From Psammoneis japonica (Eukaryota), in NCBI GenBank assembly GCA_008632985.1, contig QPGO01000033.1:558001-622000 (forward strand): a stretch of DNA of 64,000 bases, read 5' to 3'. The notes under the pieces were generated by a model. The model made no database searches. It worked only from the letters and a program-made list of their open reading frames with translations, and was not told the DNA's origin. A program made the position numbers and the translations under genes. Of the stretch, positions 12,988 to 62,927 are shown in pieces. Every line of letters begins with the position of its first letter. The stretch's first letter is position 1.

Positions 12988-13171
12988 TGAATGAATGCTG
13001 ATGCACTGTCACGAGTGCAGGCAGTTTACATGCTGTTGGCGATTGGTCCACTGTCGCTTGTTTGGTGGTCCCAGCAGTGCAACATCTCACAATTCCAGAG
13101 CCTGTTGATGCTGTTCAACACTGTGTCTTGTCTCACACCCAATTCTTGGCTGTCATGGTGGCATTCATTCA
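12988..13171 (+). repeat. 5' LTR (184 bp, TG..CA) of copia family A, copy A1, followed by PBS-like cttcatcagagcc (13172-13184)
   Basis: Same length as, and similar in sequence to, the reverse complements of 32826-33009 and 54083-54266. Confidence 0.9.
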
Positions 13172-36000: not shown

Positions 36001-38680
36001 CACCTCCTGGTGCATCCTGCATTCCTTGCAGATCTCTTTGGTCTGGCCTTCTGCCATTTCTGGTGCGCCATCCGACACAAGGACCTGCGGTGCGCCAACG
36101 TCATGTGTGAATGACATGACGGCCTCTGGGTGGTCCTGTTTCCTCTGCCAAGGATGGAACCTGTCACACCCTCTTCCGTTGGCAAATGCACTTCCTCCCA
36201 TCTCGCCATGCATTGATTTGACCTTCGAAAACATCTGGTCGGAGCAGAATCGTCCCTTGACAGCAGGGAACTTAAGCCAAGGGGCTTTCTTCCAGACTTT
36301 CCGTTTGGATGGTGTGTGGACATTGCGGACCCCTGCCTGGGTCGTCACTCTAAGGGTTTTCTCAGCGGCCGTCAGGCCAATGTTCCACCTTTTAGAGAGC
36401 ATCTTGGGCGTGATGGTCGATGCACGACTCGAGGTCGACAGTGCATGCACCCGTTGCTGCTTGGCACAATCCGGGTGGACATCCAGGTCGTGCCGGTCGT
36501 GTGGCCCGTCTCCCTCAGTGTCGTTGTGGGAGAAATTCACCTGAGCAACAAGGCGGTGATACAAAGAATCGTCGTCATCAGCGTCCACAATGACACTCTT
36601 GTCGTGACAGGACGTTTGGCATGAATGAATGGAAGCGACACACCTGGTCGCATTCATCATCGTCGACCATCCGTCCGGCTTTGCTGATCCTTGGCGCACA
36701 CCAGCACATGCATGTGCTTCCTCCTTTTGCACCAGGGCATCAGTGGAAGGCTCCCCAGCAGGGGTGATGCAAGTTCCAGCAGGGGGAGGTTCTCAAGATC
36801 CTCCTTTGTCGGCTTGTGTGAATCAAAGACTGAAGCAACACCTCGTGTGCGCAATGGCATCCTGATCTTCGAGTCAGGAAAAGAAATGGAGTGTGTGCTG
36901 GTCGGATCAAACTGGCGAGGGGTGTCGTGGACAATCAGCCCATTTGCTCGCAGTTGGTTGGGGCATGGGAGGGTGTCAGTCATCTTGTCCCAAAAAACAC
37001 AGCCTCGTGGACCAGCAGCAGGCATGGTTGTCCATCAGTTGGATCAACCCACACGGCAGCAGCCGTGCAAACAGGAACTTTTTCCATTGGTGCACGCTCT
37101 TTGGAGCAGGGGTGCACCACGACAGTTCTGTCGATGTCAGAGCACATCACAAAATTGGACCCAACAGCACACGTGTCAGCGTGCGAGTCCAAATCAGTGG
37201 TGGCTTCGTCATCTGAATGCCCAGCAGATGACAAAGAGACACGTTGGCGGCAGGTTCACCAGGCTCTTTGGAGTCTTTCGGTGTGTCAGCAGGTTGAGTG
37301 GCAGGCTCGGCAACAGCTGCTTTCTTCACAGCGCGAGTTTTGGTGTCGACCGACTCAGCCTCCGAGGATGCAGCAGCAGCTTTGCGTTTCTTTTCAGCCT
37401 TCTTGGCATCGTGGAGCTTTTGGACTTGCTCTCGTTCGGGACCATCAAGAGCATTCCACTCTTCAACAGGACAATGGCCTGCCCAGATCCTGGGCTTGTC
37501 CTTCTTGGGTTGGTGCTTCCCACCAGGGTTGCTGCGCCGATTGTTGCGGCGTTGGATGGATGCGTTCCTGCGAGTGTCAGCATTGCGGTTCTTGGCATTC
37601 TCGACCAGAGTTTTCATGTGCTGCTGGCATGCCTCGAAATCCACCAGCTTCGTTGGGTCTCCATCCACTGCACTCTCACCAGTTTCCAACCTGGGGTCGG
37701 AGATGCCCTTCAGAAAGTCAGAGACCTTCATGGTCTCGGCCACCGGTTCATCAAGCTCAGACAAGTCATTGTGAGCCTTTTGATGATGCTGAGCGCACTG
37801 GTCAAAGGTAAATCGACCCCGTCCAGTGTGCTTCGCGGCAGCAATCTGTGCATGTGCTCGGTTCTTGCAGGTGGTGGCGGCAGCCGATCCTTCTGCCTGC
37901 CTCTCAAGTGCAAAGAAAGCAGTGCGACCATCGCGGCTGCGATTGGAAGGTTTGACAAAAGCCCATCCGGGCCCCCCCTGTCACTGGCTTCTTCAAGAGA
38001 TCATGCAGACGTTGCCTGTCCTGTGCATGCTGAGCTCCTGCAAGGTGGGCAGCAGCAACAAGGTCCTCGTCAATGGCAGCGCAGGTGGCAGCCAACATCT
38101 CGGCGGTGACCTCTTCATGTTCCCCAACCAGGCAGATGAGGGGCACTCCGGCAACGGCACTGCGGTGGTGACGCAGTTCGGTCTCTAGCAGCTCTTGGAA
38201 GGTGGGCCAGTCGCATGGGTTCTTGAGCTCCATGGCCATTTTGGCAGCCGATTCGTCATCCGAGTTGGCGGACTTGAATTGCTCCAGTTCCGTGAGACGT
38301 GCCGTCCATGTTCCAGTGACGTTGCCAGTGAAGAGAGCAGCGGTCGGCTCTTGGTTCCGGGCTCTGTGGCAGTCAATCCATGCACGCAGAGCCTTGAGCT
38401 TGCGATTCGCCAGGTGTGGGAATTGGACTTGGGGGGTTGGCGGCGGTGTCCACGCTCTTCACAATGCCCTCAGTCACATCGGCAATTTCCGTCAAAGGGA
38501 CCTGCTCCAGGTCCTCGATCGCAGTGAAGCCTTGGCGGGCTGTGCAGGCACGCGTCTGCGCATTGCATCCACAGTGCGCAAGACAGGCGGCAAAGGCTGC
38601 GAGAGCGGCCATGGTGTGTCAGCAGTTGTTCACGTTTCGACGTGTGAGCATCTACTTGTGTGAGTGGAGGAAAGTGAGAA
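32826..38680 (-). mobile_element. Copia family A copy A2: gag (from 38612), protease, integrase, RT, RNase H and 3' LTR; 5' LTR missing; internal deletions
   Basis: KARFVARGH, ALCGLKSSG, YVDD (34236-34247), FVDADHAG..SKRQNAVESSAFGSE. Confidence 0.95.
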
Positions 38681-38794: not shown

Positions 38795-41262
38795 CTTTGT
38801 GATTTTGCACCCTTTGTCATTTTGCACCCTTTGCCACCATTTTGCACCCTTTGTGATTTTGTGCCCTTTGCCGCCATTTTGCACCCTTTGTGATTTTGCG
38901 CCCTTGACGCGTCCAGCCCTGGGTGGGAGCTCGCAGTGCTGACGTGTGACAACAATGATTTTTGTCATCCGTCGCATGTTTCGTGCGCAGATTTCCACGT
39001 GTGACATTTAAAAAAAATGTCCAGACTCGCTGTTTTGCGAAGCCCCAGACGTTTTGCACAACAAATTTACAGAAACAACAATGTGCCAGTTGCATTCTTC
39101 AATGTCTGAAGAATGTAACTGGCTGAGTAAAAAATGATGTGCTTCAATCATGTGCGAGTTTGTGCGTTCACAAAATTGCCTCATTTTCTGTTGGCGATCA
39201 TTGACGCTTTAATTGCCGCATGATTTTGCTGCGGAGCTCGCACGTAGAAGTCTGTGGGCCCAATGTCACACGGATTCCCACCTGCGTCTGGAATGCATCC
39301 CTTGGCCATTTTGCGCCCTTTGTGATTTTGCACCCTTTGCCGCCATTTTGAGCCCTTTGTGATTTTGCACCCTTTGTGATTTTGAGCCCTTTGCGACTTT
39401 GGGCCCTTGGCCATTTTGCACCCTTTGTGATTTTGCACCCTTTGCCGCCATTTTGCGACATTTGTGATTTTGCACCCTTGCCGCCCTTGACCATTTTGCG
39501 CCCTTGGCAATTTTGCTCCCTTTGTGATTTTGTGCCCTTGGCCATTTTGCACCCTTTGCGACTTTGTGCCCTTGGCCATTTTGCGCCCTTTGTGATTTTG
39601 CACCCTTTGTGATTTTGCGCCCTTTGCCGCCATTTTGCACCCTTTGCTGCCATTTTGCACCCTTTGAGATTTTGCACCCTTTGCCGCCATTTTGCACCCT
39701 TTGTGATTTTGCACCCTTTGTGATTTTGCACCCTTGGCCACTTTGCACCCTTTGTGATTTTGAGCCCTTTGTGATTTTGAGCCCTTGGCCATTTTGCACC
39801 CTTTGTGATTTTGCACCCCTTGCCGCCATTTTGCACCCTTTGTGATTTTGCACCCTTGGTCATTTTGCACCCTCAGTCATTTTGAGCCCTTTGCGACTTT
39901 GCGCCCTTGGCCATTTTGCACCCTTTGTGATTTTGCACCCTTTGCCGCCATTTTGCACCCTTTGTGATTTTGTGCCCTTTGCAGCCATTTTGCACCCTTT
40001 GTGATTTTGCACCCTTTGCCACCATTTTGCGCCCTTTGTGATTTTGCACCCTTTGTGATTTTGAGCCCTTTGTGACTTTGGGCCCTTGGCCATTTTGCAC
40101 CCTTTGTGATTTTGCACCCTTTGCCTCCATTTTGCGCCCTTTGTGATTTTGCGCCCTTGCCGCCCTTGACCATTTTGCGCCCTTGGCAATTTTGCTCCCT
40201 TTGTGATTTTGTGCCCTTGGCCATTTTGCCCCCTTTGCGACTTTGTGCCCTTGGCATTTTGCGCCCTTTGTGATTTTGCACCCTTTGTGATTTTGCGCCC
40301 TTTGCCGCCATTTTGCACCCTTTGCTGCCATTTTGCACCCTTTGAGATTTTGCACCCTTTGCCGCCATTTTGCACCCTTTGTGATTTTGCACCCTTTGTG
40401 ATTTTGCACCCTTGGCCACTTTGCACCCTTTGTGATTTTGAGCCCTTTGTGATTTTGAGCCCTTGGCCATTTTGCACCCTTTGTGATTTTGCACCCCTTG
40501 CCGCCATTTTGCACCCTTTGTGATTTTGCACCCTTGGTCATTTTGCACCCTCAGTCATTTTGAGCCCTTTGCGACTTTGCGCCCTTGGCCATTTTGCACC
40601 CTTTGTGATTTTGCACCCTTTGCCGCCATTTTGCACCCTTTGTGATTTTGTGCCCTTTGCAGCCATTTTGCACCCTTTGTGATTTTGCACCCTTTGCCGC
40701 CATTTTGCGCCCTTTGTGACATTGTGCCCTTGGCCATTTTGCGCCCTTTGTGATTTTGCACCCTTTGCCGCCATTTTGGGCCCTTTGAGATTTTGCGCCC
40801 TTTGTGATTTTGCACCCTTGGCCATTTTGCGCCCTTGGCCATTTTGCTCCCTTTGTGATTTTGTGCCCTTTGTGATTTTGTGCCATTTGCCGCCACTTTG
40901 CACCCTTTGTGATTTTGTGCCCTTGGCCATTTTGCAACCTTTGTGATTTTGCACCCTTTGCCGCCATTTTCCGCCCTTTGTGATTTTGCACCCTTGGCCA
41001 TTTTGCACCCTTTGTGATTTTGCGCCCTTTGCCGTCATTTTGCGCCCTTTGTGATTTTGCACCCTTTGCTGCCATTTTGCTCCCTTTGTGATTTTGCGCC
41101 CTTGGCCATTTTGCGCCCTTTGTGATTTTGCACCCTTGGCCATTTTGTGCCCTTGGCAATTTTGCTCCCTTTGTGATTTTGTGCCCTTTGCGATTTTGCG
41201 CCCTTGGCCATTTTGCTCCCTTTGTGATTTTGCACACTTTGCGATTTTGCGCCCTTTGTGCC
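38795..41262. repeat. Minisatellite 2: 17/20-bp units (TGATTTTGCACCCTTTG, CCATTTTGCACCCTTGG, CCGCCATTTTGCACCCTTTG) with a 678-bp higher-order duplication; interrupted by a MITE
   Basis: Visible array; the marker cattttgcaccctcagtcattttgag occurs at 39861 and 40539. Confidence 0.95.
38906..39299 (-). mobile_element. MITE (394 bp), ~24-bp imperfect TIR, TSD CCTT
   Basis: cctt|gacgcgtccagccctgggtggga ... tcccacctgcgtctggaatgcatc|cctt; removing it restores a satellite unit. Confidence 0.9.
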
Positions 41263-42993
41263 CTGAGCTCAAGGGCATCAACGCCTTTGTCGGAAGGCCC
41301 GCCAGTTTTCTTGAGCTCCAACTCAACTTCGGCCAATGCCCTTTTGACACAAAGGTCAGAGGACATGGCCCAGCATGTCTTGCCATCCAAGTCAGACAAC
41401 TGGCACTTTCTGATCTGGGCGCCCAAGCACTCTTCCGGCTCGCAGACACTTCCGTCCTTGAGCCCGTGCCTGGAGCTCACATGATCCACAGCCTTCTGAG
41501 GTTCATGGGAGATGCACAACAAGTCATCCATGCACACAAGCACATGTTCCCAGTGCTTGAAGCCACCCAGCTTGACCGCAGCTCACATCCAGACATCCGG
41601 GTCAGCCTTGCAAGACTCGAACCCAGCATCACGCAAGGTGGCTGCCATGTGTTCCCTGAGTCTCGCACCTGAAGACTTGAGACCACACAAGGCTCAGACA
41701 ACAATTGCCGGCCTTCCTTCGTTGTGCTTCCCAAATTCCAGGCCAGCAGCAGTGCAACACTTCTCTTCAGTGTGTGCGTTCGGTTCACCAGCTGCCTTGT
41801 TTGCTGCAGCACACTCAGCAACCTCGACTGGGTCAGATTCCTTCAAATCCTTGAGGGGAACCCAGGATGCAGTCCTGTCCTTCCATTTGACTTGCAGGTC
41901 CCAGCCTGCAGTCGTCCTCCCAGGAGCGTGCCTGCCAGCCTCAGTCGTCATGCACCCGTCATCAGCCGTTGCGGCACGGGCATCACATCGGCGGTCAACT
42001 GTCTCCTTCATGATCTGGCAGTCATTCCCTTCAGAGTCCATCTGAGCAAACAGGTTCTCTGCAATTGCGTCAGCGGCACAGGAAACAGTGGATCCATCAG
42101 GAAACTCCACATCGTGTGTCCTCGAGTCTGGGACAGGGTTGTCATTCCCAGCACCAATGGGAACCCTGTCATCATCTCATTTGCATGCAATGACCCCAGC
42201 ATGAGTCAGCTTGCCTCCACGTGGTGACATGACTTGAGCTGTGAGGTGTTCATCTGGCCCCTCCGGGGTGTGCTCATCAGCTTCTGGTTTGGAAGCATCG
42301 GGTTCCATGGGTTCAACAGCATTGCCCCATTCGTCCATGAAGTCATCAGGGAGTTCAGGGAAGTCAGCATTGGCGCCCTGTTCCGGGATGCCAAGTCATT
42401 CGATCAAGGCCTGATCGACTGACACAAGATCCGCTTTGATCGCCAGAGTTTCAAGGTCATCCTCCGACAAGGCCCACACATCTTTCCGAATGATGGGTCT
42501 GCCTGATTCGGGCAGGATGACAAATGCCATGTCGTCAGCGCAGTTGCAGTTGTCGGCTGCTCCAAGCCAACGGCCGATGCACTTCTTCTTGTGTGGGAAC
42601 TCTGCCACAGGCATGTGACAGCAGACAGGTTGACATCAATCAAAGAGAGAGAGCGATGAAATGTCAGGTGTTGAACCTGTCACCTCTTCTTCTGGGACTC
42701 GTCCTCCCATGTCCGATGTGCTGGCAGTCGCAATCATGCGTTGGACATCACATGTCCATTTGGCACTGTGGGACCAAAGTCGCCTGTGAGCGCCAGTCCG
42801 GCACAGAGTCACTCGGACTCTCTTCTTCAACTCATGGATGGATGCCTCGGCCAGGTTCTGCCAGGGGCTGTGCGGGGTGGACACCTCCTGGTGCATCCTG
42901 CATTCCTTGCAAATCTCCTTGGTCTGGCCTTCTGCCATTTCCGGTGCGCCATCCAACACAAGGACTTGCGGAATGCCAACGTCATGCACAAAT

Positions 42994-45900
42994 CGGCAGG
43001 GGAAGAAGCCTTCAGCTCGCAGGCAGTCGGCGAAGCGCTCGTGCCAGCGGAGACCGGAGCTGCGCAGTCCATGCAGTGCCTTGTGGATGACAAGGATGTG
43101 TCCTTCGAGTTTGCCGAACTCGGGTCCAGCTACAATGTAAAGCTTCTCCTTGGTGGTGGCTTCAAGGCAGGCATTGCCAATGTCGGTGGCCCATGTCTCC
43201 AACTCATTGAGTTCGGCCAGGAAAATCATCAGCCGAAGGCCACGGAGGGAGACTGCTCCGGAGCAGACACTGTCGACAGGTACGTCCGTGAGGTGCCCGT
43301 CGGCTACGAGTCGTGCCTTGTGGCGACCGTCGTGTTTCACGTCGTACACTGGGTGCACTCGGATCTTCTTGTGTCCCGCAGGAGGAGTGGAAGACTTGAA
43401 GGGCCCGCAGTCATGGAAGACTTCGTATTCGTCGAGTTGGTCCATCTCGAGATTAGTTGCGTCTCCCCACTTGCGGTTGCCGTTGCGTTCGTCTAGTGAC
43501 ATGGCGTGTTTGTAGTTCCGGGGAACTTCGCATCCACACTTGCAGCGAGGTGCAGTGCGGAAGGAGCGAAGCTTGGCTTGGTTGGCCATGCGAAACAGCT
43601 TCTTTTGGTGCCTCGCGATGGTGCGGAACCGCTTCCAGCCATCCGTGTCGAGGAGTCCGTTCTCTCGTGCATAGATGGCACAGGTGACGGGGTCGTCCTT
43701 GGCGATGATGGCAAGAGGCTCGGACGTGATCTCCCCACTTTCCCATTCAAGCATGATGTTGTAGCTGGAGCCTTTCCAGGTTGGGTCGTGAGGCTTCAGA
43801 GGTCCTTCGTGTGACATGATGCATCGAAATTTCCAAACAGTGGTGTCTTCGTCTTCTTGCTCAATGTGATTCATGATGTCATTGCAGGCAAGGACTTCCT
43901 CGCATTCGTCATTGTTGACAGAGCAGACGAACTTAGTGAGCTCGGGATTGCCGTTCACTTTCCATTCGTGGTCTTCGACGGCCTTGACGATGCAAGCTCT
44001 GTGGCGTTGTCCGTCCTCTTGTGGCTGCATGAGGAAGGTGCGTCCAATGATGTCTTGCGGATCGAAAACTGGCATCTTGGGTGTCCTGATCTCCCCATCA
44101 GGAGAGTCGACGGGTTGTCGTCATGGCGAGATTTGATGATGGGTTCAGGTGGCTCCCCATCAGGAGGATCAAGATGCAAGTTTCGAACGGCAGGATCGGG
44201 GGCAGCGGAGCGGACGTTGGACCGGCAGAGGATCTTCTGAGTCTCGTCAGATAGAATCTTGAAGGTCATCTGGTGGCCGACGTGCTCAGCAATGCCAACG
44301 AAGCGTCCACGCAACTCACGGGATTCGGACGGCCAATCGGAGTCATCGAGGTGGAAGCACACGGGTTCCCACCAGTGAAAGCGAAGCAATGGGCTGATGT
44401 CCGGGGTGGAGCCAGTGAGAGTCTCGAGGGGCGTGCGCCAGTGGAGACGTGGGGACGCTGTGTGGTTGAGCATGAAGCACACGTACATGAGCGCCAGCAG
44501 CCATGTGTGGGCGGGCGAACCAAAACGATCCATGACAGTGTTCGCCATGCGCTTCACGGTCTGGCATCAACGCTCGGCAAAGTTTTGGTGTTGCTGGTGA
44601 GCGGGGTTGGGTGATTTGCAGGCCTTGCGAAGGTGTGTACCGGCGGGCATGCGGGCGTACTGCGTGGTGCAGTCAAAAGTACGACGGACCGCATCGGCAG
44701 GTAGGAAGCCAAAGTAAGGCCGAAGAGACTCAAAGGGGGGGTCCTTGGGCTGTACAGTGCGCTCCGGAGGTGGAACGTCATCGCCCTGGGGGCCAATCGC
44801 ATGCAGATGACACTCGTAGAACACGTCGTCGTTCGGAATGAGGTGATCATCGAGGGCGGACGCGTGATCGGCAGACAAGGAAGCGGACATGATGGTCTCG
44901 TTGACAACGACACGATGACGGTAGTTGCCACATTCGTCAAACAGGTTGGCAGTGGGATCGTCCTGCAGGTCAGAGATCGCGTCGCACCACTGGTCGTCGT
45001 CAGTGACAGAGTGATCAAGGACGGAAGGGTCCCATGTGTCATCACCGGTGAGGATGACATGGGGCAGGGTGTCCCATTCGGCGTCAGTGTAAGGTCGCAT
45101 GGCAACATAAGGCAGGCCAGCCTTGATGTCAATGGGGATGACATAGACATCAGGAGTGGCAATACGCTGCAAGCCATTGGGCACCTTGACAGAGCGATCG
45201 TTGACATCCTGTTTGTACCATTCGAGCTGGCCGCAGGAATGGATGGTCTTGCCCTTGCCCGTGCATGCGCACTGATGGAGGATGGCGATGACGGGACCAC
45301 GCTGGGTCTCAATGACGGCACCAGCGGTGACAATGGGGATGTCTGCCAATTGATGATCGTCAATGCCCTGAACGTCGACTTGGCAAGAGGTGCGTGCAAT
45401 GACGCGAACGTCGTCACCAGCAATGCCGCCGTTGGCCCCACGATCGACTAGAGCGCCAGTGCGTGTGGAGCGATGAGCAGAGGCAGAGCAAATGACATTG
45501 TGGTTGTCAACGCGGCGGTGAGTGCGGCCATTAAGTTCTGTGTCATCTGCAGAAGCTGGCTGGGTAGAGGAAGCGGCGGATGGCCCCGGTCGACTGGCAT
45601 TGGGGGCTTGGTTAGGAGACAACAGACGTTGCAGATCACCGGGTGGCAGTGGCTTGCGTTTGGCGAGGTGCGCCAGGATGGGATTATCCGAAGTGGCGTC
45701 CACATGTGGAGCGGAGTCACCAGAGTCAGCAGGAGTCATGTTGGACAAGTTGACATCACCGTCACTCCCAAGGCGTTGGTCGTGAAGGTTGGCCGTAACA
45801 GACTCATGGCAGTCACTGGCTCGCGGGTTGCGGGGAGGTGGACGAGAATGCTCAAGGATGATCGCCTTGGAGGAATCGGGCAACGAATCCCAGAGCCGTT

Positions 45901-48353
45901 GGTGGTCGGGAGGGAGACGTCTCCATTGGACACTGGTGAGGCTGGGACCGCGGGTGCAGGCAGCATTGGCTTGAAGGACGTCAACGTCGCTGTCAATGTC
46001 GTAGAACACATCGTCGGACGGTTCCTCGGAGTAGACGTCGTGTGCGCACATGGCGCGTCGGGGAGCTCGAGGTGTCGTCTTGGGTTGAAACGTGCTGTTG
46101 TACTGAGCTGCCGCGGAGAGGAGCAAGCCACAGCATTGATCGTATGTGAGGCTCTTGCCACTCTGCGTACGATGCTGATCAGCTTGGTTCTTGACAGCAC
46201 GGAGTTCCTCGACAGGGTGCACGGCATTCTCGAGCATGACGCGCTTCTGTCCTTCAGAGAAGTGGTCACTGGCCGGGATGAGTGCCTCGTACTTGCGCAA
46301 CTGATCTTGCCAATGAAGGATGAACCCGTGGGTCGGACCTTTCCAAGTGCCATCACCAAGACGTGCGGTGGTGAGGCACGTGAGCAGGGTGGAGGACTCG
46401 ATGGATGCGCGGGTGGAGGCAAGCGCGCACTCAGACAAGGAGCGGCAGACGGTCTGTGCATCAGAAGACCCCACATTTTCGCGAATGGGAGCCTTGCCCT
46501 TGTCGGTGAGAAGGATGCGTTCGAAGACGGTGAACATGCACTTTTGCTGTTCAGCAAAGAGCAGCTTGTCTTCGGGGCTGGTCGGTTTGTACGACGAGTC
46601 TAGAATGCACTCGACGTCTTGGGCACGGGCTTGTGCCACAAGTGAGGTGTGCCAAGTGTGCCACTGCTTGTCGGATTTGAGAGCCGTGAAAGCGGTGGGA
46701 TCACGCTTGATGCCTCGCTTGAAGTCCCGCACCGGGTCGCGTGCCTTGGTCGGGTTGGTGACATGTGGAGGTGCAAGGGGTGAGCTGCCGATGGACACAC
46801 AAGACATGCAGTCGGGGCTGAGGCGGCAGGCAAGGAACTCGTCATGCGCGAACAAAGAGGAGTCATTGGCAACGTCAAGACCTTTGTGTGCTTTGACAAT
46901 GTGCAGACTGACTGGTGCTGCTAACATGTTCTTATAACCACGGGGCAAAGGGATCACATTAGTGCCGTTGTCGCACTCAAGCGAGTCGATTTGGGACGGT
47001 GTGAACGTGAACAGTTCCTGATGCGAGTCCGTGCCGTCTTGGGCCAAAGCCAAACGAAGAGGACTCCCAGCACCTTGGGCAAGCACGGTTCCAACCACGT
47101 GCTCGAAACCATCGGTTTGTTGCTGACGAGTGAGAACCATGGCAGACAAAAGTGGTGTCAGGACAATCAATTCTGGTTGGGAAGCGAAGGTAGACTCGAA
47201 ACTTGGGTGAGAACAGACTTGACTTGAAATGGACTTGACTTGAAATCTTGAACTGTCTTAAAATCAGAAGTCGCCGGGCTTTGTTATCCCGTTCGTTGTT
47301 GAGTGCTAAACTTCCTATCCGGTCCGTAGAGTTGTGCCGGCACGTCCGGACCCGCAGCCAGTGGCGCTTTGGGTTGCTTGCGAGCGGAGCAGCGGGTTGT
47401 AAACCCCTGCAGGTGAGCTGACCAGAGGTGGACAAGACCCCCGAACCGTTCTTATTTTACATCGGTTGGATTTCCCGATCAGGCTGGCCAGTTGACGCAG
47501 GCGTCAGGCGCTGTGGACGAACAAACAAACGCGGGAAAGCACCCTCGCCCCAACGCAGGCTGTGGTCACGGCTGCTTGCTCTCACAGTCGTCCTCGTGGA
47601 CCCAGCAGAACTGTAGAGCACCAGCAGTCCGGGGTAGATCAGGTACAATGGACTCGGTGTGCTTGTAGAGTGGTGGCAAAACCGCAGTCCGAAGAGTGGG
47701 TACAGGTTCTTGGCCGTGAAGATGTGCACACATACATGTCTTCAGCGACAAAGATCCTTGAATATGCAGGGTTCTTGACCGTTAACCGATGAATGGGTAT
47801 GTCAAGGGATGAGGATCAAGGATAGACTTGGACATGACCGTTGAATGTATGTCTTCAGCGATCAAAGGTAGCACAATCAATCCAGATATCCAGCGGTAAG
47901 GAGACTTGACGGTGACGTTAACTTCCTGCCGATGCCCTGGCATTGAATGCGCGTAGACTTGCCGATGCATGTAGAATGTATACGGAGGTCCACGTAGAAT
48001 TGAAATAGCGTCGTTGGTAAATCAACGACGACGATGGCGGTTGCTCAATGGGTTGACAATGAGCAAGACTGTTAATCTGACAGAAATTGAAGGCAAATGG
48101 CAAGAGTTCAAACAACAACTCCTTACTGCTGTCCAAATGGCAGATGAGTCTCCGCTCAGAGACCGTTGCAGGAGCCGAAAGACGTGCAAGTCGGCATGAT
48201 CGGGCTACTGTCATTGTTCTTGTGAGCCTTGTGGCTCGAAAGCAAACTACATCGCGCGTGAACGCGCGGAACTAAAGCACACAAAACTGTGCACGGTAAA
48301 CTAAACAGCGCGCGATGCTTCGCGCGCACCCAAATCCTGTTCAAATCCTGTCA
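42994..48353 (-). mobile_element. Younger copia element, here family C (CoDi-type): 5' LTR, gag-pol from ~47140, integrase core deleted, truncated within RT
   Basis: DFKRGIKRDP, protease LVDRGANGG, HQNFAER, VYDVKHDGRHKARLVADGH, DIGNACL, ALHGLRSSG. Starts TGACAGG on the minus strand exactly at the break in family A. Confidence 0.9.
47429..48353 (-). repeat. Putative 5' LTR of element C (inner boundary uncertain)
   Basis: TG at the outer end; a candidate CA end is followed after 4 nt by TGGTCAGCTCACC (PBS-like). No second LTR is available for confirmation. Confidence 0.45.
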
Positions 48354-48758
48354 GACATGATGGCATTCGGGTGGTCCTGTTTCTCTTCCAAGGATGGAGC
48401 CTGTCATGCCCTCCTCCGCTGGCAAATGCACTTCCTCCCATCTCGCCATGCATTGACCTGACCTTTGAAAACATCTGGTCAGAGCAGAAGTGTCCCTTGA
48501 CAGCAGGGAACTCAAGCCACGGGGCTTTCTTCCAGACTTTCCGCTCGGATGGCACGCCAACATTGCGGACCCCTGCCTGGGTTGTCACTCTGAGGGTGTT
48601 CTTGGTGGCCGTCACACCAATGTTCCACCTCTTGGAGAGCATCTCCGGGTGTGATGGTTGATGCACGACTTGAGGTCAACAGCGCATGCACCCATTTCCA
48701 CTTGGCACAATCCAGGTGGATGTCTGGGTTGCACCAGCCGTGCAGCCCGTCTTCCTCA

Positions 48759-49714
48759 GACGGGTTCCAGCCCCAGGTGGGACTTTTTGTGACATTGGGC
48801 CCACAGAATTCTGCGTGCGAGCTCCGCAGCAAAATCATTGGGCAGTGAACATGTGAATGATTGCCAACAGAAAAAAAGGCAACCCCGCAAACGCATCTCC
48901 TCCTCCACACTTGAAGCATGTGCTTTGCAGCATGCCCGGGTGTGTTCTTCAGACATTGAAGAACACACCCAGTGTGTGATGTGTTCCAGCCGCACGTGAA
49001 CCAAATCGTGCACAGAAAACGACATTTGCACGATTTTTGCGCGGTCCCTAACTTGCTGTCGAACTTTCACCACCAAAAGCATGGATTTGTCCAAATGCAA
49101 ATGTTTTGCAACACTGACAAGACTCGTGTGAGTGTTGCAACATCATTGTCATTGTGCTGTCTGTGTTTTTCATTGCGTTAAAAGATTCGTAACACAACGG
49201 ATGATTTTCGGCAAAAATGTTGCCATCATTTGGATGTCACCTGAACATGTCTTTCTGCTGTGCTGCTTGGCAGATTTTCTACCTGCAAAGAAATCTCAGC
49301 ATAAATCCACTGACGTACAATCAGTGTTGAGTCCACTGAGGAAGTTTGTGACACATGTCCCATGAGGACTTGAATGCCCCACAAAAAACTGTTTAAATGT
49401 TCATGCTCTAGACGCCTGTGAAAGCCAATCCGCTCAAGTGTTTTGTGTGAAAATGCTTCGTGCACTTAAAGACACATGATTTACACTCAAAATCGATTGT
49501 CGTTTTGTGCGTCACCTGGGACTGGAACACGTCGTGTTTTTGTTGACATGAGTGCAGACAACAGAAAGCCTTTGGCTTCGCAAAACAGGCGGTGTGGAAC
49601 AATTTTTTGTGACAGAGCATGCAGAAATGTGCACGCAAAACATGCGACGGATGACAAAAATCAAACATGTCACAGCTCAGCAGTGCAAGGTCCCACCCAG
49701 AGCTGGAGCACGTC
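48759..49714 (+). mobile_element. Longer member of the MITE family (956 bp), TSD CTCA
   Basis: ctca|gacgggttccagccccaggtggga ... tcccacccagagctggagcacgtc|ctca; the empty site is seen in A1 and A2. Confidence 0.9.
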
Positions 49715-49945
49715 CTCAATGTTGTTGTGGGAGATGTGCTCGCCTGAGCAACCAGGCAGTGATGCAGAGAATCGTTGTCATCAGTGTCCACAATGGCGTT
49801 CTCGTCATGATGAGATGTTTGGTGTGAATGAATTGAAGCGACACACCTGGTCGCATTCATCATCATCGCCTGTCCATCAGACTTCACTGACCCTTGGCGC
49901 ACACTGGCACATGCATGCGCTTCCTCCTTTTGCGCCATGGCATCA

Positions 49946-51525
49946 AAACCACAATTCTGCATTTAAAGTGCTGCTGCGCTTCCACCCTGCAACTCTGACA
50001 ACAAGCCAACCCACACCCCCAGTGCACCAACAGCGCGGCAGGAATGCATTGCGATTGGCCAAGATGGGCGTCACCAACAAATGATGATGCCCGCCAGGAA
50101 CAGTTGGGAGTGGTGTCACAGACAGCAACAGCAAATTAAAAACAAAACCAAAATTCTGTGTTTAAAGTGCTGCTGCGCTTCCACCCTGCAACTCCGGCAA
50201 CAAGCTGACCCACACCCCCAGCACACATGTGTGCGGCAGGAATGCATTGTGACCAGCCAAGATGGGCATCACCAACAAATGATGATGCCCGCTGGGAACA
50301 GTTGGGAGTGGTGTCACAGACAGCAACAGCAAATTGATTTGGAACCTTCAAAGCACTTGAAACCACAGCAATGGAGTGGCTCTTTGCTTCTGGCTGGATC
50401 TGATCATTCCACTGAAGCAAGCCGTGCTGGAACATTCCAAAGTGAGAAGGGATCTGAAACAGAGCAAACACCGCAAATTTCACAAACAGGGACCAAAACA
50501 TCACCAACCTCCGAGTTGGTCTCAAAATCAAACTTCTGGTGGCAGCAACAACAAAAAGGAGTTCACCACACAGAGCAAAGAACTTAAAAAGGCACTGAGG
50601 AAAGGGGGGGTCATTGGAGCTTGGCAGGTGCAGATGGAGAGCCGTCGGATGATTGGAAAACAGGCCATCAGAAAATGTTTTCATGACACGCAGAACTTGT
50701 GCTGAGTCTTGCACAGGAACTTGGCAGGAAGCATTGGCAAACAGGCAAAGATCCAAATCAAGCCGAGTTGATCTCGAATTCACACTTCTGGAAGCAGCAA
50801 AGATGGAAGGGTGTTCGCTGCACAAAGCAGAGAACTTAAAAGGACAGCAGGCACAGGGGGGGTCTTTGGAGCTTGGCAGGTGTGGACAGAGAGCAGTTGA
50901 GAGATTGGGAGATCGGCCATTTGAAAATGTTTCCTTGACGTGCAGAACTTGTGCCGAAACTTGTGTGGACTTGTCGGCACAAGGAAGGTTGGCCAACGCA
51001 CACTGAGCTGGTCTCTTCTTCAAACTTCTGAAAGGAACAATGACAGGAAGATGTTCGCCACATGACACAGGAAACTTGAATGGACAACAGAGAGAAGGGG
51101 GGTCGTTGACACTTGAGAGGCATGGAGAGAGAGCAGTCAGCAGTTTGACGAGTCGTTCATCTGAAATGACTTGCAGAACACACAGAATTTGCACTGAGAC
51201 CTGTGTGGAAACTTTGCAAGTGAGAACAAAAAATGTCAAGAAGAACGTCAAGCAATTGAGCCAAGAGAGCTGGATGCAATTCGTTTTCCACTGCATGAGA
51301 TTGTCGCTGATCATGGAACAATGGCATGTCGACAAAGGAGCGCATGTGGAAAAACATGCAGAGGGTGCAGCTGTGAAACAAAGGCAGAATTGTGGCCACA
51401 AGGAATGCATGGAATCGCACAAGAATCGATCATTGCCAACAATGCAAAGGCAGCCAATTGGTTGTCCTCGTGTCATGACTTCTTTTTTCTTTTTGTGGGA
51501 GCCGCGTTTTGGTTTGCATTCAGCA
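49946..51525. mobile_element. 1.58-kb insertion flanked by a 13-bp direct repeat, containing internal ~200-bp and ~240-bp tandem duplications
   Basis: cgccatggcatca at 49933-49945 and 51526-51538; single copy at the empty site in A1. Confidence 0.75.
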
Positions 51526-54082
51526 CGCCATGGCATCAGCAGAAGGCTCCCATCTCAGGGGTGATGTGAGTTCCAGCCGGGGAAGGTTCTCCAGATCCTC
51601 CTTTGTTGGCTTGTGTGAGTCAAAAACTGAAGGAACACCTCGCATGTGCAACGGCATCCTAATCTTCGAGTCAGGGAAAGCAACAGAGTGTGCACTGTTA
51701 GAATCAAACTGTCGAGGGGTGTCGTGGGCAGTCAGTCCATTTGCTCGCAGTTGGTTGGGGCACAGCAGATTGTCAGTCATCCTGTCCCCGAAAAACATGG
51801 CCTCATGGGCTGACAGCAGGTGTGGTTGTCCATCAGTTGGATCAACCTGCACAGCAGCAGCCGTGCAAATGGGAATGTTTTTCATTGGCGCGTGCTCTTC
51901 GAAGCAAGGGTGCACCATGACAGTGCGGTCGATGTCAGAGTGCATTGCAAAATTGGACCCAACAGCACACGCATCAGCATGCGAGTCCAAGTCATTGGTT
52001 GCTTCACCATCTGAATGTCCAGCAGATGACAAAGAGACACACACATCCTTTGAGAATTGCCCAGACAAATGCACAGTGCCAGCAGGTTCAGCAACAGTCG
52101 GCTCTGTGCTTTTTGGTGCTGGCGCAACTGTTCATGCCTCTTTCTGAGGTTTCTTGTGGGCGCTGCGTCTGAACTGCTTGCCTTCGTTGGCAGCAGGTTT
52201 GCCTGACTCTTTGGAGTCCTTTTGTTCATCAGCAGGTTTGGGTTCAGGCTCGGCGACAGCCACCTTTTTAACAGTGCAAGTTTCGACATCAACCGACTCA
52301 GCCTCTGAAGATGCAGCTGCTGCTTTGCATTTCTTCTTGGCTTTTTTGGCCTCACAGAGCTTCTTGACTTGCTCTTGCTCAGGACCATCAAGAGCACTCC
52401 ACTCTTCAATGGGACAGTGGCCTGCCCTGATCCTGGGCTTGTCCTTTTTTGGTTGGTGCTTGCATCCAGGGTTTCTGCACCAGTTGTTGTGGCGTTGGAC
52501 GGATGCGATTCCGCCAGCATCAGCATTGCAGTTCTCAGCATTTTCTGCCAGAGTCTTCACACGCTGCTGGCATGCTTCGAAATCCACTGGCTTTGTTGGG
52601 TCTCCATCCACTGCACTCTTGCCAGTCTCCAACCCAGGGTCGGAGACACCCTTGAGAAAGTCAGAGACCTTCTTGGTCTTGGCTGCCGGCTCATCAAGCT
52701 TGGACAAGTCATTGCGAGCTTTCTGATGGCATTGAGCGTGCTGGTCGAAAGTGAAACAACCCCATCCAGTGCACTTTGCGGCAGCAATCTGTGCACAGGC
52801 ACGGTTTTTTGGGGTGGTGGCAGCAGCCGATCCTTCCGCCTGCCTCTTGAGTGCAAAGAAGGCAGTGCGACCATTGTGGTTGTGATTGGAAGGTTTGACA
52901 AAAGCCCACCCGGCCCCCCCTGTCACTGGCTTCTTCAAGAGATCACACAGGCATTGCCTGTCCTGTGTGTGCTGAGCTCCTGCAAGTCGAGTGGTGGCAA
53001 TGAGGTCTTTGTCAATGGCAGAGCAGGTGGCAGCCAACATTTTGGCAGTGGCGTCTTCATGCTCCCCAGCCAGGCAGACAAGGGGTGTGCCGGCAATGGC
53101 ACTGTGGTGATGGCGTGGCTCACTCTCCAGCAACTCTTGGAAGGCAGGCCAGCCATGCAGATTCTTGAGTTCCACGGCCGTCTTGGCAGCCAACACATCG
53201 TCCGAGTCCGCTGACTTGAATTGTTCCAGTTCTGTGAGACGTGCCATCCATGTCCCAATGACGTCACCAGCAAAGAGAGCAGCAGTCGGCTGTTGGTTTC
53301 GGGCTCTGTGGCAGTCAACCCATGTGCGCAGTGCCTTGAACTTGCGATTCACCAGGTGTGGGAAGTGGACTTGCGGGTTGGCGGTGGCATCCACGCTTTT
53401 CACAATGCCCTCAGTCACAGCAGCAATCTCTGCCAAAGGGGCCTGTTCCAAGTCCTGAACAGCAGCAAAGCCTTTGCCGGCTGTGCAGGTGCGCGTCTGC
53501 ACATTGCATCCACAATGCACAAGACAAGCGGCAAAGGCCGCGGCAGCGGCCGCCGTGTGTCAGCAGTCACTTGCATTTCGATGCGTGAGCATCCACTTGT
53601 GTGAGTGGAGAAAAGTGAGAAAAGATTTGGTGGTTTCTGCTTGGCAACCCCGTGAGCAGGTGGTGTCACTCCTGAGCAACAATTTCCAACAGACGTGCAC
53701 CCACATGTGCAGTGTGTCCAAACCATTTGACAGCGCACTTTGGTCAAACAAATGCGCACAGTCAATTGACAGACCTCAGCACACAAATCATTGTGTTGTC
53801 TTCATCACAAATGTTTGCATGTCTCAGCCAACATGTTCCATCCACGTGATCAAACATTCCGTCCACTGACGTCATGTCCAGCGGATCACAGCTCTGGTCT
53901 CCAAGAGCGTGTCGTTCACATCCATGAATGTTGGCATGTGCAAAAGACTCAGCGATTGCGTGAGCAACCATGGGACCAACATGGCTCTTGCCACAAAAAT
54001 CGATCAATCGCAACGTGCCGTTGCGCTGTTTGCGATGCCCGTTCCAGACGATGAACATCACAGTGCATTGGCTCTGACAAAG

Positions 54083-54266
54083 TGAACAAATGCCACCATG
54101 ACAGCCAAGAACTGGGCACAGGACAAGACAGGGTGTTGGACAGCATCAACAGGTTCTAGAGCTGTGAGATGTTGCGCTGCTGGGACCACCAAACAAGTGA
54201 CAGTGGACCAATCGCCAACAGCACATGAACTGCCCACATTTGTAACAGCATGTCAGCATTTGTTCA
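54083..54266 (-). repeat. 5' LTR (184 bp) of copia A3/4, followed on the minus strand by PBS-like ctttgtcagagcc
   Basis: Matches 12988-13171 and 32826-33009. Confidence 0.9.
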
Positions 54267-54485
54267 TGATTTTGCACCCTTTGCGATTTTGCACCCTTTG
54301 CCGCCACATTGCGCCCTTTGCGATTTTGCACCCTTTGCCGCCATTTTGTGCCCTTGGTCATTTTGTGCCCTTTGCGATTTTACATCCTTTGTGATTTTGC
54401 ACACTTTGCCGCCATTTTGCGCCCTTTGTGATTTTGCGCCCTTGGCCATTTTGTGCCCTTTGTGATTTTGTGCCCTTTGCCGCCA
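54267..54485. repeat. Distal remnant of minisatellite 2
   Basis: Same 17/20-bp units, in the same orientation as 38795-41262. Confidence 0.9.
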
Positions 54486-54769
54486 TCACATGTGGTGCAT
54501 TTGGGATGGGAGGGTTCAGGTTTGGGTCATGAGGTGGCACAAAACGCTTCCGGTTGAATGACAGACCCCACCTGATTGATGCCAAGTGGCCGTGGTTGAA
54601 GGACAGACCACACAAAAATGGATGCGCACCCGTGTCTGTTTCTCATCCACAGTCGAACTCAGGACATGCATTTGCCAAAGCTGTCGATGCAATTTTGCTC
54701 CTGTCAACAGACAGACCATGCAAAATGGATGCGTGCCCGCATCTAATTCGCATCCACAGTCAAGCTCAG

Positions 54770-57700
54770 GACACGGCCTCATTGTCGCAGAAGACGTTGG
54801 CGGAGCCATCGATGGGAGCACCCATCATGTGAAGCTTGTGTCGAAAGGCCTCGATCTGCTCCACGGCAATTTTCATCACAACAAATTCCACATTCCTGAA
54901 AACGTGATTGATTGAAGGTCAGTTCCGTGTCATCGAACACCATCGCTGACCTGGCATGTGCCTTCAAACAGGCAAAGATGTGAAACTCCTCATCCAGGTG
55001 CCCAACCCTTGGTGCTGCCAAGCAAGAAGACAGAAGAGAGACTGGCGCTGCAATGTCAGTGCGCCCCAGTTCCACCACCCAACACAAAACGCCAATGAGT
55101 CCCTGGAAACAAGTCGCCCTTCGGGCATCCAGCTCAGGTGCAGCGTCAAGTTCAGGGTGATGCCCCAAACTCAATGGCGTTGTGACTCTCTTCTTGAGTC
55201 CCCGGCCTGCACGGCCGAGTTCAAACTCAATGTTGGCAGTGGCCCGCTTGACACACAAGTTAGATGAAAGGGCCCAACATGTTTTGCCGTCCGAGTCAGA
55301 TGGTTGGAACTTCTTCACTTCGGCACCCAGGTGCTCTTCCGGTTCCTTGACGCTTCCCTCTTTTAGCACATGTCTCAAAGCCATGTAATCCATGAACTTC
55401 TGGGGTTCATGCGAGACAACCAGCAGGTCATCTGCATGTGCAAGCATGCATTCCCAGCACTTGAAGCCATCCAGCTTGGCATTCTTGTGCATCCACACAT
55501 CGGGATCACCCTTGCCACAGGTGAATCCCACGAGCCTTGGCGTTGCTGCCACATGTTCCCTAAAAGCAGCGCCGGAACTCTTCAGTCCGCACAGGGCCCT
55601 GACAATTTCAACGGGTCGACCGACACTCTGCTTGCCAAAGTCCAGGCCAGCAATTGTGCAACAGCACTCCTTCATTGGTGCATTCAGACGAGCATTCTGA
55701 ATGTTGGCACACATGACTTCCAAGTCATTCAGAGCTGCTGTCGTGTGGCCTCCAGCCACGTGTTGCGCTTTCCTGTTCAAGTCCAACTTGATGTCAAACA
55801 CCAAGTGGCACTTAATTTCCTTGTGTCCCATCTGGTCATCATCGACAAATTCGAAGGCTGGCATTGCATTGTGCATCTCCTTCTCAATTGCATTTCCCCG
55901 CAGGTCAAGCCCAGACTGTTCATCCAGCATCAAGGCCTGCTCCACGGATTTTGGCAATTCGACACCGAATTTGTGAGTGCGCTTCCAGCACCTGGTCTTG
56001 ACTTTCATGACCATCCTGGCATGACGACGCAACATGTCTCGAACCCACCAGTTGAACGCTGGCTCACCAGCCATCTCATTTGCAACAGCATGCTCCGTGA
56101 CTTGGACAGGGAATGATTCTTTTGCCTCCGACAAAGGGAGCCAACTAGAGCTTCCATCTTTCCACTCAAACTGTGTGTCCCAGTCAATCGTCGTTCGGCG
56201 GGGCCTGCGCGTGCCACTCTTTGTGACAAAGAAACCATCATCTTTGTGCACTGTGCATGCGTCACTTTGGTGACCTGCAATCTCTTTGACAATTTGGCAA
56301 GATCGTCCCTCCCCTTCAACCTGGGAGCAGATGTTCTCAGCAATTAAATTGGCTGTGAACATGTCGGCAGATCTGTCTGGGAACTCTACCTCGCAAAGCC
56401 GTGAATCCAGGACAGGCTTTTTGTGCCGCTTCCCTGTCTGATTTCCATCCGCAACGCGCTTCCTGGCAACAACTTTTGCGTGCTGCAGCTCACCAGCTCG
56501 TGTGAGCCTAAGTTCCACCGCCAGACACTCATCCATTGCCTCCGGCGTGAACTCATCTGCTTCCAGATGAGTTGCATCTTCTTTGAATGGCTCTGCATTG
56601 GCATCTTCCTTGCCAAATGGGTCTTCGGGTGGTTCTGGGAACTTGTCACTCCCTTCCTGACCGTCCCCTGGCCTGAGTTTCAGACTGGCATCGAGATGCT
56701 CAATCTTTTGCCAAATCGCATTGGTCTTCAAGTCATCCTCAGGCAGAGCCCACACATCCTTCCAAATGATGGGTGTGCCTGATTCAGGTGGGATCACAAA
56801 TGCCATGTCATCTGCACAGTTTTCTGTGACACCTGACCAGCGCCCGATGCACTTCCTTTCAAAGGGAAATTTTGCCTGAAATGTCATAAAGTGCACCGGC
56901 TGGCACCAGTTGAAGAGGGCATGAGCTGAGACGTCTGGTGTTGAACCCGTGATGTCCTCTTTGGGGACTTTCCCATCCATTTCCGGATGCTCAGAGGCCG
57001 TGAGCCTCCTGACAGCCATGGCCCACTTGGCACAGCAGGACCAGCAGCGTTTTGGCGCATTCGTGCGCCTTGTTGCAATCCGCACTTTCTTCTTCAGCTC
57101 ACGAATGGAGGCTTCGGCCAAGTTCTGCCGTGGACTGCAAGGAACAGCAACCCCTTGTTTGATCTGGCACCCCAATGATTCGTAATGGGATCCGGACCTT
57201 GGAGTCCGGGAAGGCAATTGAATGAGTGCTGGAGCTGCCAAACTGCTTTGGCACATCATGCACCATCAAGCCGTCAGCATGGAGCTGATTGGGACATGTC
57301 AGTGAGTGTTTCATCCTGTCCCCAATGTGCATGGCCTCATTCAAGATGAGGAGGTGTGGCTGACCAGAACTTGGGTCAACCCAGACAGCAGCAACCGTCT
57401 GCATCGGGATGTTGTTGATCGGGTCACATTCACTGGAATGTGGATGTGCAGTGAAAGCACGAGAGGGGTCAGAGAAGGGAACACAGCTGGATCCTGCAAT
57501 GCATGTGTCGGCATGCGTGTCCAGCTTGTTGAAAAGGGAGTTGTCACCTGCATCAGTGTTGACTGAAGCTGTGTGTCTTAAGGATTTAGCAAAAGGCACA
57601 GACACATTTCCATTGGTGCAGACAGAAGCAGCATCACAAGAATTGATTTGAGACTCCATTTTAACTTCTACAAGGTTGTTGTCCTTGCTCATTGGCGCAA

Positions 57701-59846: not shown

Positions 59847-59849
59847 CTG

Positions 59850-62800: not shown

Positions 62801-62927
62801 TCCATGGTTGCACACGCCTCACCAGAGCCTTCCTTGACCGTCCCTGACAAGAAGGCCAAGCCTGCATCTCACTCGAAACCAGCACCTCCTTCATTGTCTG
62901 GTGATGTGCCATTGTCTGGGGAGGGAG
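59850..62927. other. TpA-depleted decayed coding-like sequence, unassigned
   Basis: Broken frames such as RRTCRACQCQDCKGRGG near 60770 and 62212-62847; no domain recognised. Confidence 0.3.

Follow-up and report, generated by a model that had tools for sequence, protein, structure and literature searches.

Graded loss of TpA dinucleotides from nested retrotransposons in a Psammoneis japonica contig

The stretch of DNA analyzed here (the window) comprises 64,000 nt of contig QPGO01000033.1 (positions 558,001 to 622,000, forward strand) from the Psammoneis japonica assembly GCA_008632985.1; all coordinates below are positions within the window. The first 8 kb carry ordinary, nearly intron-free genes for a bile-acid:sodium symporter family protein, an ion-transport-like protein and a cytochrome P450. 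Nested repeat DNA fills the rest, from ~7835 to the end (56 kb; 7835–64000), and this repeat domain is depleted in two dinucleotides, TpA and CpG. Within it, a fragment of a Ty1/copia-like retrotransposon, here called element C (42994–48353, reverse strand), lies inside an older retrotransposon of a different family, family A. The original prediction held that element C has been caught in the middle of a conversion that removes TpA faster than CpG, with its long terminal repeat (LTR) largely spared. The evidence described below argues for a progressive, TpA-specific process in the repeat domain, and changes the picture for the LTR.

The depletion follows the borders of the repeat domain. Over the whole window, the observed/expected ratio (o/e) is 0.14 for TpA, 0.60 for CpG, 1.54 for TG and 1.62 for CA. 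The genes (1–2400 and 3800–7800) have a TpA o/e of 0.59–0.66 and a CpG o/e of 1.02–1.16; in the repeats outside element C, TpA o/e is 0.06–0.07 (190 TA in 50.6 kb) and CpG o/e is 0.49–0.55, with TG and CA raised to 1.6–1.7. TpA and CpG drop jointly within ~100–300 bases at ~2432, 3832 and 7835, and the loss is confined to discrete regions, the adjoining genes being unaffected. The last of these borders, ~150 bases past the P450 stop codon, is sharp, with a TA at 7834 and then none until 8174. The other two enclose a separate depleted island of ~1.3 kb between two normal genes (2432–3832), which has three TA in 2432–3702, low CpG and sharp edges. This island is without similarity to the rest of the window or to 80 metagenome loci, and could be a solo LTR, or else an unrelated fragment that was silenced. 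It also shows the process reaching small domains. The P450 gives an indication of the host: its named relatives are all diatoms (Epithemia, Mayamaea, Trieres, Cyclotella, Thalassiosira and Seminavis; 36–48% identity), and its top match is an unnamed sequence at 57% identity.

Element C is a 5.36-kb 5′ fragment of a multi-copy retrotransposon and comprises a 5′ non-coding part, the gag, protease and presumed integrase regions, and the first part of the reverse transcriptase (RT), all on the reverse strand. The 5′ non-coding part (47154–48353) is a putative LTR plus leader. The following frame spans 896 amino acids from stop to stop (44570–47257) and covers gag, protease and the putative N-terminal part of integrase; its first Met is residue 40 (codon at 47140), leaving 857 amino acids, not the 867 given earlier. 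An in-frame TGA (44567–44569) splits the polyprotein. Since this codon reads CGA in 94% of the contig depth from other copies of the family (see below), it is a private CpG-decay mutation. The same frame continues for 203 amino acids (43955–44566), which correspond to the C-terminal region of integrase by similarity to homologous polyproteins. It overlaps a 375-amino-acid frame (42994–44120) that holds the pre-RT region and the N-terminal part of RT; hence, a frameshift lies between 43955 and 44120. The RT is of the RVT_2 type (PF07727, E 1.4e-12, 48.2 bits against a cut-off of 31.6), with a match that covers profile positions 10–145 of 244 and breaks off exactly at 42994. The 896-amino-acid open reading frame (ORF) aligns with homologous polyproteins over residues 40–890, and Pfam searches with this ORF and the 203-amino-acid frame returned nothing, including any integrase family, at an E value of 0.001 or better. 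The RT part is 57–69% identical to environmental and diatom sequences (Nitzschia and Cylindrotheca), and the closest known elements are the CoDi-type Ty1/copia-like retrotransposons of diatoms, with which it has the RVT_2 reverse transcriptase in common.

How did element C come to lie inside family A? The sequences on its two sides, 42000–42986 and 48354–48759, are contiguous in another family A copy (35128–36105 and 36113–36518), and 42994–48353 is therefore an insertion, as had been proposed. The host sequence continues unbroken to either side (42993/42994 and 48353/48354). Element C has no second LTR and no target-site duplication at its junctions, and no internal direct repeat of at least 80 bases was found in it. 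The contigs of other copies run past 42994 into further RT sequence as loose ends. Because the RT is cut at 42994, other copies continue and there is no target-site duplication, element C is a 3′-truncated fragment. Repair of a break, and not integrase, probably brought it into family A. Capture of retroelement DNA fragments at repaired breaks is familiar from work on yeast Ty1. Contigs that join 42993 directly to 48354 were also seen; they could represent other family A copies or an empty allele, which are indistinguishable at 80% likeness, and were not used.

At least four partial, copia-like copies of family A lie in the window, with 81.9–87.3% mutual identity. Copy 1 is inverted (12988–16853, forward strand; TpA o/e 0.05, CpG o/e 0.44), and the others are on the reverse strand: copy 2 (33968–38680; 0.09 and 0.64), copy 3, the host of element C, and copy 4 (51527–54267; 0.03 and 0.48). 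Copy 3 is in three parts, none of which has a single TA: the left part (41257–42993; 1737 bases, CpG o/e 0.49), the middle part (48354–48759; CpG o/e 0.44) and the right part (49714–49945; CpG o/e 0.65). A second insertion, insert D (48760–49713; 954 bases), separates the middle and right parts; copies 1 and 2 lack it. Insert D lies ~400 bases from element C, and parts of it resemble 39176–39293, 11338–11544 and 62933–63026. Satellite arrays stand at the ends of family A copies: a 17-base unit repeated 110 times (39308–41260), the same unit again beside copy 4 (54269–54486), a 23-base unit repeated 37.5 times (12133–12987) and a 279-base unit repeated 3.6 times (27300–28295). Their TpA o/e is 0.00–0.01.

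The nested insertions provide an age series at one locus. TpA and CpG o/e are, respectively, 0.00 (no TA in 2375 bases) and 0.44–0.65 in the host copy of family A, 0.14 and 0.69 in insert D, and 0.32 and 0.94 in element C, such that TpA loss is graded with nesting order. The three nested ages fit progressive TpA loss, as the original prediction had it. With baselines taken from relatives, the ratio of TpA decay to CpG decay is 3.7–3.9 for family A, 3.9–4.3 for insert D and 7.9–9.7 for element C, and hence is roughly steady.

The mutation spectrum was read from an alignment of three family A copies (1931 dinucleotide columns). A double difference between CA and TG was considered as proof of a TA ancestor and rejected, since CpG decay yields the same pattern. 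Because CA and TG are ambiguous between a TA and a CG ancestor, the columns that still bear CG were used to bound the CpG share. CG is kept in all three copies in 17 columns, in two copies in 48 and in one copy in 58, corresponding to a retention of ~0.5. There are 71 columns that mix CA and TG without CG, and CpG decay is estimated to supply at most ~14 of them. Thus, most of the mixed columns had a TA ancestor that was lost separately in each copy. TA survives in only seven columns, a retention of ~2–3% (~97% lost). The two directions of conversion are equally frequent, with 39 columns reading CA, CA, TG and 32 reading CA, TG, TG (p 0.48), and runs tests detected no clustering of TG and CA states along the family A copies (z −1.4 to +1.2). 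Other A:T sites are far less affected: by a rough majority-rule polarization, A-to-G change at non-TpA sites is 0.011–0.079 per lineage site. C-to-T change at CpG is 0.13–0.21 per lineage site. The old elements are TpA-depleted throughout their length, keep Tyr at 0–1 of the 12–33 positions at which homologues have Tyr, and have proportionate numbers of frameshifts, stops and ordinary substitutions as well. A small example of independent conversion may be seen at the site where element C inserted (42987–42993, and 36106–36112 in copy 2): copies 1 and 3 have the letters cacaaat where copy 2 has tgtgaat, which is what a single TATA-containing ancestor would give if converted in opposite directions.

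Element C retains 83 TA in 5360 bases. Its coding part (42994–47153) has 45 TA against 188 expected (o/e 0.24), with a CpG o/e of 0.93; its 5′ non-coding part has 38 TA against 70.0 expected (o/e 0.54), with a CpG o/e of 0.96. CpG is therefore still abundant, in line with the earlier claim. The consequences for the protein are clearest at Tyr codons, all of which begin with TA. The 896-amino-acid ORF has 15 Tyr, the number counted previously, together with 25 Cys and 37 His. This ORF was aligned with 60 representative homologues and the RT part with 51 (most 57–66% identical). At the 30 columns in which at least 50% of homologues have Tyr, element C has 14 Tyr (11 TAC and 3 TAT), 11 Cys (10 TGC and 1 TGT), 3 His (2 CAC and 1 CAT), 1 Trp (TGG) and 1 Phe; at the 20 columns with at least 70% Tyr, it has 8 Tyr, 8 Cys, 2 His, 1 Trp and 1 Phe. 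Taken by frame, the 17 Tyr columns (at least 50%) of the 896-amino-acid ORF read 9 Tyr, 6 Cys, 1 His and 1 Phe, and the 11 Tyr columns (at least 70%) of the RT frame read 4 Tyr, 4 Cys, 2 His and 1 Trp. Over 190 conserved columns, the RT part has 18 mismatches, and 7 of these sit on those 11 Tyr columns. The four motifs in which Cys had been suspected of replacing Tyr all fall on Tyr or Tyr/Phe columns: the homologues have Tyr in 21 and Phe in 19 of 44 at EQQKCMF, Tyr in 36 of 45 at LLTCLT, Tyr in 38 and 23 of 48 at the two sites of HQCACTG and, at the three sites of RCKCGC, Tyr in 38 of 50, Tyr in 31 of 51, and Phe in 28 with Tyr in 21 of 51.

This pattern of element C stands out from that of 80 environmental relatives, which are metagenome loci fetched by peptide patterns containing Tyr. 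Element C reads Cys at 12 of 57 homologue-Tyr positions, and the relatives read Cys at 20 and His at 208 of 4640 (Fisher p 6e-16 for Cys). Because the fetching patterns contained Tyr, the set of relatives is biased toward unconverted copies. None of the 80 has a TpA o/e below 0.33 or was shown to carry the Tyr-to-Cys signature. Two of the loci (L069 and L075) have a rather low TpA o/e (0.33 and 0.36) but do not appear in the list of the 25 that retain the least Tyr; hence, a family can probably have a fairly low TpA by nature as well.

The Arg codons of element C give a measure of CpG decay on the same scale. At 46 Arg-majority columns, element C keeps 37 CGN codons and one AGA, and has five CpG-decay outcomes (three TGC, one CAC and one CAA) and three other changes. 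Loss of Tyr codons by conversion of TA to TG or CA (15 of 29) is hence far more frequent than loss of CGN Arg codons (5 of 42; Fisher p 0.0004), with a rate ratio of 5.7. Together with the retention of ~2–3% for TpA and ~50% for CpG in family A, this bears out the claim that TpA is lost faster than CpG; CpG loss equal to or above TpA loss would have spoken against it. Relative to 28 unmethylated-looking relatives, the coding part of element C lacks ~94 TA and ~35 CG and has, on the sense strand, ~76 extra TG and ~65 extra CA, a rough balance between the two strands. Retained and converted Tyr codons in element C show no clear difference in neighboring bases, although the sites are too few for much contrast.

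Other copies of family C can be seen in public data, namely the assembled contigs of four runs that come from one sample (X1–X4; these may be the assembly's own data), aligned to the window at a likeness of at least 80% (15,761 pieces for X1). A search for near-identical short protein fragments of other copies gave a best match of 73% identity and none from this organism. Sampled 31-letter words of 42000–49500 are present in the contigs at 56% for X1 and 30–31% for X2–X4. The changes in X1 relative to the window are mostly transitions (154 A to G, 143 T to C, 132 C to T and 120 G to A), with 66 transversions. Summed contig depth is ~56,000–130,000 over element C, with a peak of 415,000 at 48024–48274, and 4,600–12,000 in the flanking bins 42000–43003 and 48526–48776; it is not a copy number, and is taken only as a sign of many family C copies. 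Comparisons of single sites between copies rest on 40 listed places out of 621 variable ones, and the majority state at a TA site need not be the ancestral one.

The same sites read TA, TG or CA in the contigs of different copies, a heterogeneity among copies. For example, the codon for Tyr286, an invariant Tyr in 51 homologues, is TGC in the window and elsewhere CAC in ~19% and TAC in ~11% of depth. At 44638–9, the window has TA, and 44% of depth elsewhere has CA and 31% TG; TA, TG and CA also differ among copies at 44203–4, 45519–20 and 44565–6. The codon at column 580 is CAC in the window versus TGC in 84% of depth, and the position of Cys73 is Tyr in 38%. Conversely, the window keeps TAC at 46289–91, 44921–3, 43512–4 and 45215–7, where the others read TGC in 100%, 83%, 52% and 58% of depth, respectively. 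Some of the Cys codons are therefore polymorphic within the family, while others are already common to it: Cys195 and Cys318 of the RT are the same in the covering contigs, and Cys79 is probably so. Since these codons are common to other copies, part of the conversion probably predates the copy in the window; Cys codons already present in the family were to count against the original prediction, and to this extent they do. Hence, the claim of an element caught mid-conversion holds for family C as a whole, the window copy being neither more nor less converted than the rest, and conversion of this particular copy in place is not demonstrated. The shared conversions may reflect a partly converted source lineage or recurrent hits.

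Is the loss uneven along element C? The 5′ non-coding part is the least converted stretch. The ratio of non-coding to coding TpA o/e is 2.2, versus 0.78–1.5 in 21 relatives with long ORFs, and surviving TA are over-represented in the non-coding part by each of three baselines (binomial p 0.0005–0.012). Thus, unevenness along the element was correctly foreseen. The 5′ part is not largely spared, however. In the 21 relatives, the median TpA o/e is 0.78 for coding sequence and rises to 0.89 over the 1.2 kb that lie upstream, so that an o/e of 0.54 is well short of near-normal, and the non-coding part is itself missing roughly a quarter to 40% of its TA. Coding TpA in the relatives depends weakly on GC content (r −0.18), with a prediction of 0.66 ± 0.15 at the GC content of element C. 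The assignment of 47200–48350 to an LTR or untranslated region fares similarly: this is the non-coding 5′ end, and its identity as an LTR is not demonstrated. Indeed, TA density falls near 47190–47260, just upstream of the first Met codon, which matches the coding border rather than any demonstrated LTR end. Contigs of other copies differ from the window at 72 of 1595 bases (4.5%) in 47454–48072, versus 141 of 6125 (2.3%) in the coding part, both figures being sums over listed contig pieces from X2–X4. The unevenness could come from uneven targeting, from selection on cis-acting sequences in lineages that still spread, or from a different sub-family origin of the 5′ part.

The few TA that survive in the old repeats hint at a preference for certain neighboring bases. 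The 190 survivors (8001–42993 and 48354–64000), which are scattered over the domain rather than limited to one repeat, were compared with the TA of the genes and with 24,199 TA of relatives. TTAA makes up 25% of survivors and 4–5% of TA in the genes and relatives; the corresponding values are 25% and 11–16% for GTAA/TTAC and 21% and 8–9% for CTAA/TTAG. At the other extreme, ATAT makes up 0% of survivors (7–9% in genes and relatives) and ATAC/GTAT 1% (14–16%), and ATAG and GTAC each make up 2% of survivors. In a rough fit of a multiplicative half-site model, susceptibility falls in the order A > G > C > T for the base before T, which is equivalent to T > C > G > A after A. These contexts suggest a neighbor-base preference, to which newly made TA could contribute, and are a lead rather than a measurement.

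A process of this kind has been described in the chlorarachniophyte Bigelowiella natans. Among the 302 nuclear mutations of its mutation-accumulation lines, 231 lay within two regions of integrated viral DNA; of these 231, 230 were A-to-G or T-to-C changes, every one at TpA, with a rate of ~6e-7 per site and generation (Mettrop et al., bioRxiv 10.64898/2026.01.13.699255). The preprint also reports that TpA-depleted coding sequences of B. natans are enriched for reverse transcriptase and transposase domains, and its authors propose an ADAT2-like DNA adenine deaminase (10.64898/2026.01.13.699255). As far as the preprint describes them, the two cases are alike in that TpA is the sole target and becomes TpG or CpA according to the strand, and in that the affected DNA is foreign, silent and in discrete regions, with tracts poor in TpA and rich in CpA and TpG; silence at the present locus is presumed. 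They differ in host (Rhizaria, versus a host whose named P450 relatives are all diatoms) and in targets. In B. natans, according to the preprint, these are a single-copy giant-virus insert (Rho TpA 0.45) and a virophage insert; here, they are LTR retrotransposons, satellites and a small island, with TpA o/e down to 0.00–0.07. The rate was measured in real time in B. natans and is deduced here from a comparison of copies. Parallel CpG decay, a neighbor-base preference and a nested age series are found here and are not part of the main text of the preprint.

The direction of the changes, their specificity for one dinucleotide, their independence among copies, their strand symmetry, the sharp borders, the speed relative to CpG decay and the gradient with nesting were all observed. 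We consider it probable that they result from a DNA-level conversion of TpA to TpG or CpA in a silenced repeat domain, with family C about half-way through it. The window would be a chromosome piece of a diatom-like alga in which ordinary genes are followed by nested, dead Ty1/copia-type retrotransposons. The process would act inside the silenced domain and spare the neighboring genes; it would convert TpA by A:T-to-G:C transitions, site by site, on either strand equally and without clustering, ~4–6 times faster per site than CpG decays in the same domain, until nearly no TpA is left. The copy in the window would mix conversions common to other copies with its own, most of its loss presumably dating from before it separated from the family. 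Such a process is likely to be enzymatic and aimed at silent chromatin, and may be of the same kind as the TpA-specific hypermutation of B. natans. Its chemistry could be deamination of adenine at 5′-TA by an ADAT2/TadA-like enzyme, or oxidation of thymine. Thymine oxidation at TpA would resemble the chemistry of 5-hydroxymethyluracil or base J in dinoflagellates and kinetoplastids. The most specific version, in which a diatom carries out chromatin-domain-targeted DNA editing with a 5′-TA adenine deaminase or an oxidase of the paired thymine, and does so with the same system as Bigelowiella, is a tentative proposal.

Could the copies have been born mutated? If A-to-I editing struck the retrotransposon at UA in each replication cycle, either in its genomic RNA or in the RNA:cDNA hybrid, several Cys codons of element C would be common to other copies, as they are, and its Tyr codons would lean toward Cys, the product of sense-strand A-to-G change, as they do by 11 to 3. 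ADAR enzymes, moreover, usually favor U upstream of the edited A, according to the Discussion of the B. natans preprint. Editing of this kind is nevertheless quite unlikely. The equal frequency of the two directions and the lack of clustering in family A argue against it, as does the rough equality of the sense-strand TG and CA excesses in element C as a whole. Tandem arrays and the 1.3-kb island are depleted equally, the depletion ends at the borders of the domain rather than at those of the elements, and the B. natans mutations are reported to have arisen in integrated, transcriptionally silent DNA. Alternatively, low TpA may have become fixed in a partly converted master copy that was then multiplied in trans or by DNA duplication, in which case the window copy would have changed very little at TpA since then, would not have been caught mid-conversion, and TpA loss would not be a clock. 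The identity of Cys195 and Cys318 in other copies, the coding divergence of only 2.3% from the listed contigs and the predominance of CpG decay among the listed private differences all favor a mutated master. The mixtures of TA, TG and CA at the sites described above, from Tyr286 to 44565–6, and the four Tyr codons that the window copy keeps where 52–100% of others read Cys do not; given these, a single fixed master cannot give the pattern. The roughly constant ratio of TpA to CpG decay over family A, insert D and element C also speaks against this explanation, which we regard as unlikely. Finally, a modified base at TpA might be misread as G or C in DNA that is really TA. Strand-dependent miscalls could indeed produce TG or CA at random for each site and copy, but the run contigs, with the shares of sampled words given above, have the same variation among copies, and the old copies bear a proportionate share of frameshifts, stops and ordinary substitutions. 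Because the runs come from one sample, perhaps the assembly's own, they are not independent support against an artifact. Even so, such an artifact is highly improbable.

Several observations weigh against the proposed DNA-level process, or at least against its action on element C in place. No LTR pair from which a post-insertion spectrum could be read was found in the window, and mutation of element C in situ is thus not shown. Among the listed near-fixed differences, there are 12 places where the window has CA or TG and other copies have CG, including the in-frame stop, versus only ~2–3 private losses of TA. The Cys codons common to the covering contigs are what a mutated master that is still spreading would leave. 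The lean of converted Tyr codons toward Cys over His (p 0.057) hints at a strand bias that has no counterpart in family A. In addition, the context of the surviving TA is unlike the neighbor preferences of ADAT or ADAR enzymes.

How does the proposed process relate to better-known systems? RIP, the repeat-induced point mutation of fungi, is alike in being a hypermutation by transitions at one dinucleotide that strikes mobile or duplicated DNA and wrecks its reading frames. RIP, however, changes C:G to T:A mostly at CpA and so makes TpA (PMC9998398), whereas here TpA disappears and CA and TG become more frequent. Decay of CpG through 5-methylcytosine similarly turns a palindromic dinucleotide into TG or CA on either strand, within silenced transposon domains that have sharp borders, but it cannot remove TpA, which is lost here ~4–6 times faster. 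Transposons of diatoms are CpG-methylated through DNMT5a (PMC9998398), which would fit a TpA process that follows a silenced, methylated domain. The ADAR and APOBEC enzymes also make deaminase-type transitions against mobile or viral nucleic acids, and ADAR has the upstream U preference already mentioned. As summarized in the Discussion of the B. natans preprint, they work on RNA or on single-stranded cDNA, and the changes they leave are clustered and biased to one strand; hyperediting of the ADAR type would appear as clustered A-to-G change on one strand, unlike the symmetric (39:32), unclustered pattern here. Literature searches returned no report of TpA loss in diatom repeats, and the only related report was the B. 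natans preprint.

What are the implications of this process? RIP, APOBEC editing and 5-methylcytosine decay all run from G:C to A:T. To our knowledge, no eukaryote was known before the 2026 preprint to aim A:T-to-G:C mutation at invading DNA. The window, probably from a diatom, appears to add a case to a kind of genome defense that has been described once, in that year. This suggests that the process occurs widely among major phytoplankton lineages and polices transposons besides viral inserts. Family C, insert D and family A represent three time points at one locus, and provide both a rate relative to CpG decay and a context preference that candidate enzymes must explain. If the interpretation is correct, TpA editing would be an old genome defense common to algae of the stramenopile, alveolate and rhizarian (SAR) group. 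Nested families would then give a clock, based on TpA versus CpG retention, and the preference for ATA as most and TTA as least susceptible could help to identify the enzyme.

There is also a practical consequence for genome annotation. In 35 kb of old repeats, TAA and TAG together occur 185 times versus 1594 for TGA. Because TAA and TAG are erased, many long false ORFs (200–1000 amino acids) run through all six frames of the dead repeats (8001–64000), and gene finders would over-call in such sequence. For example, a Pfam match to LbR_Ice_bind on 11935–12987 is a by-product of translating the 23-base satellite array. A weak match to Aminotran_3 on 22487–23383, within the depleted domain (E 4e-5, 22.9 bits against a cut-off of 30.5), which had no match to a solved structure, was dropped as probably spurious; if real, it would mark a host-gene relic that had undergone conversion as well.

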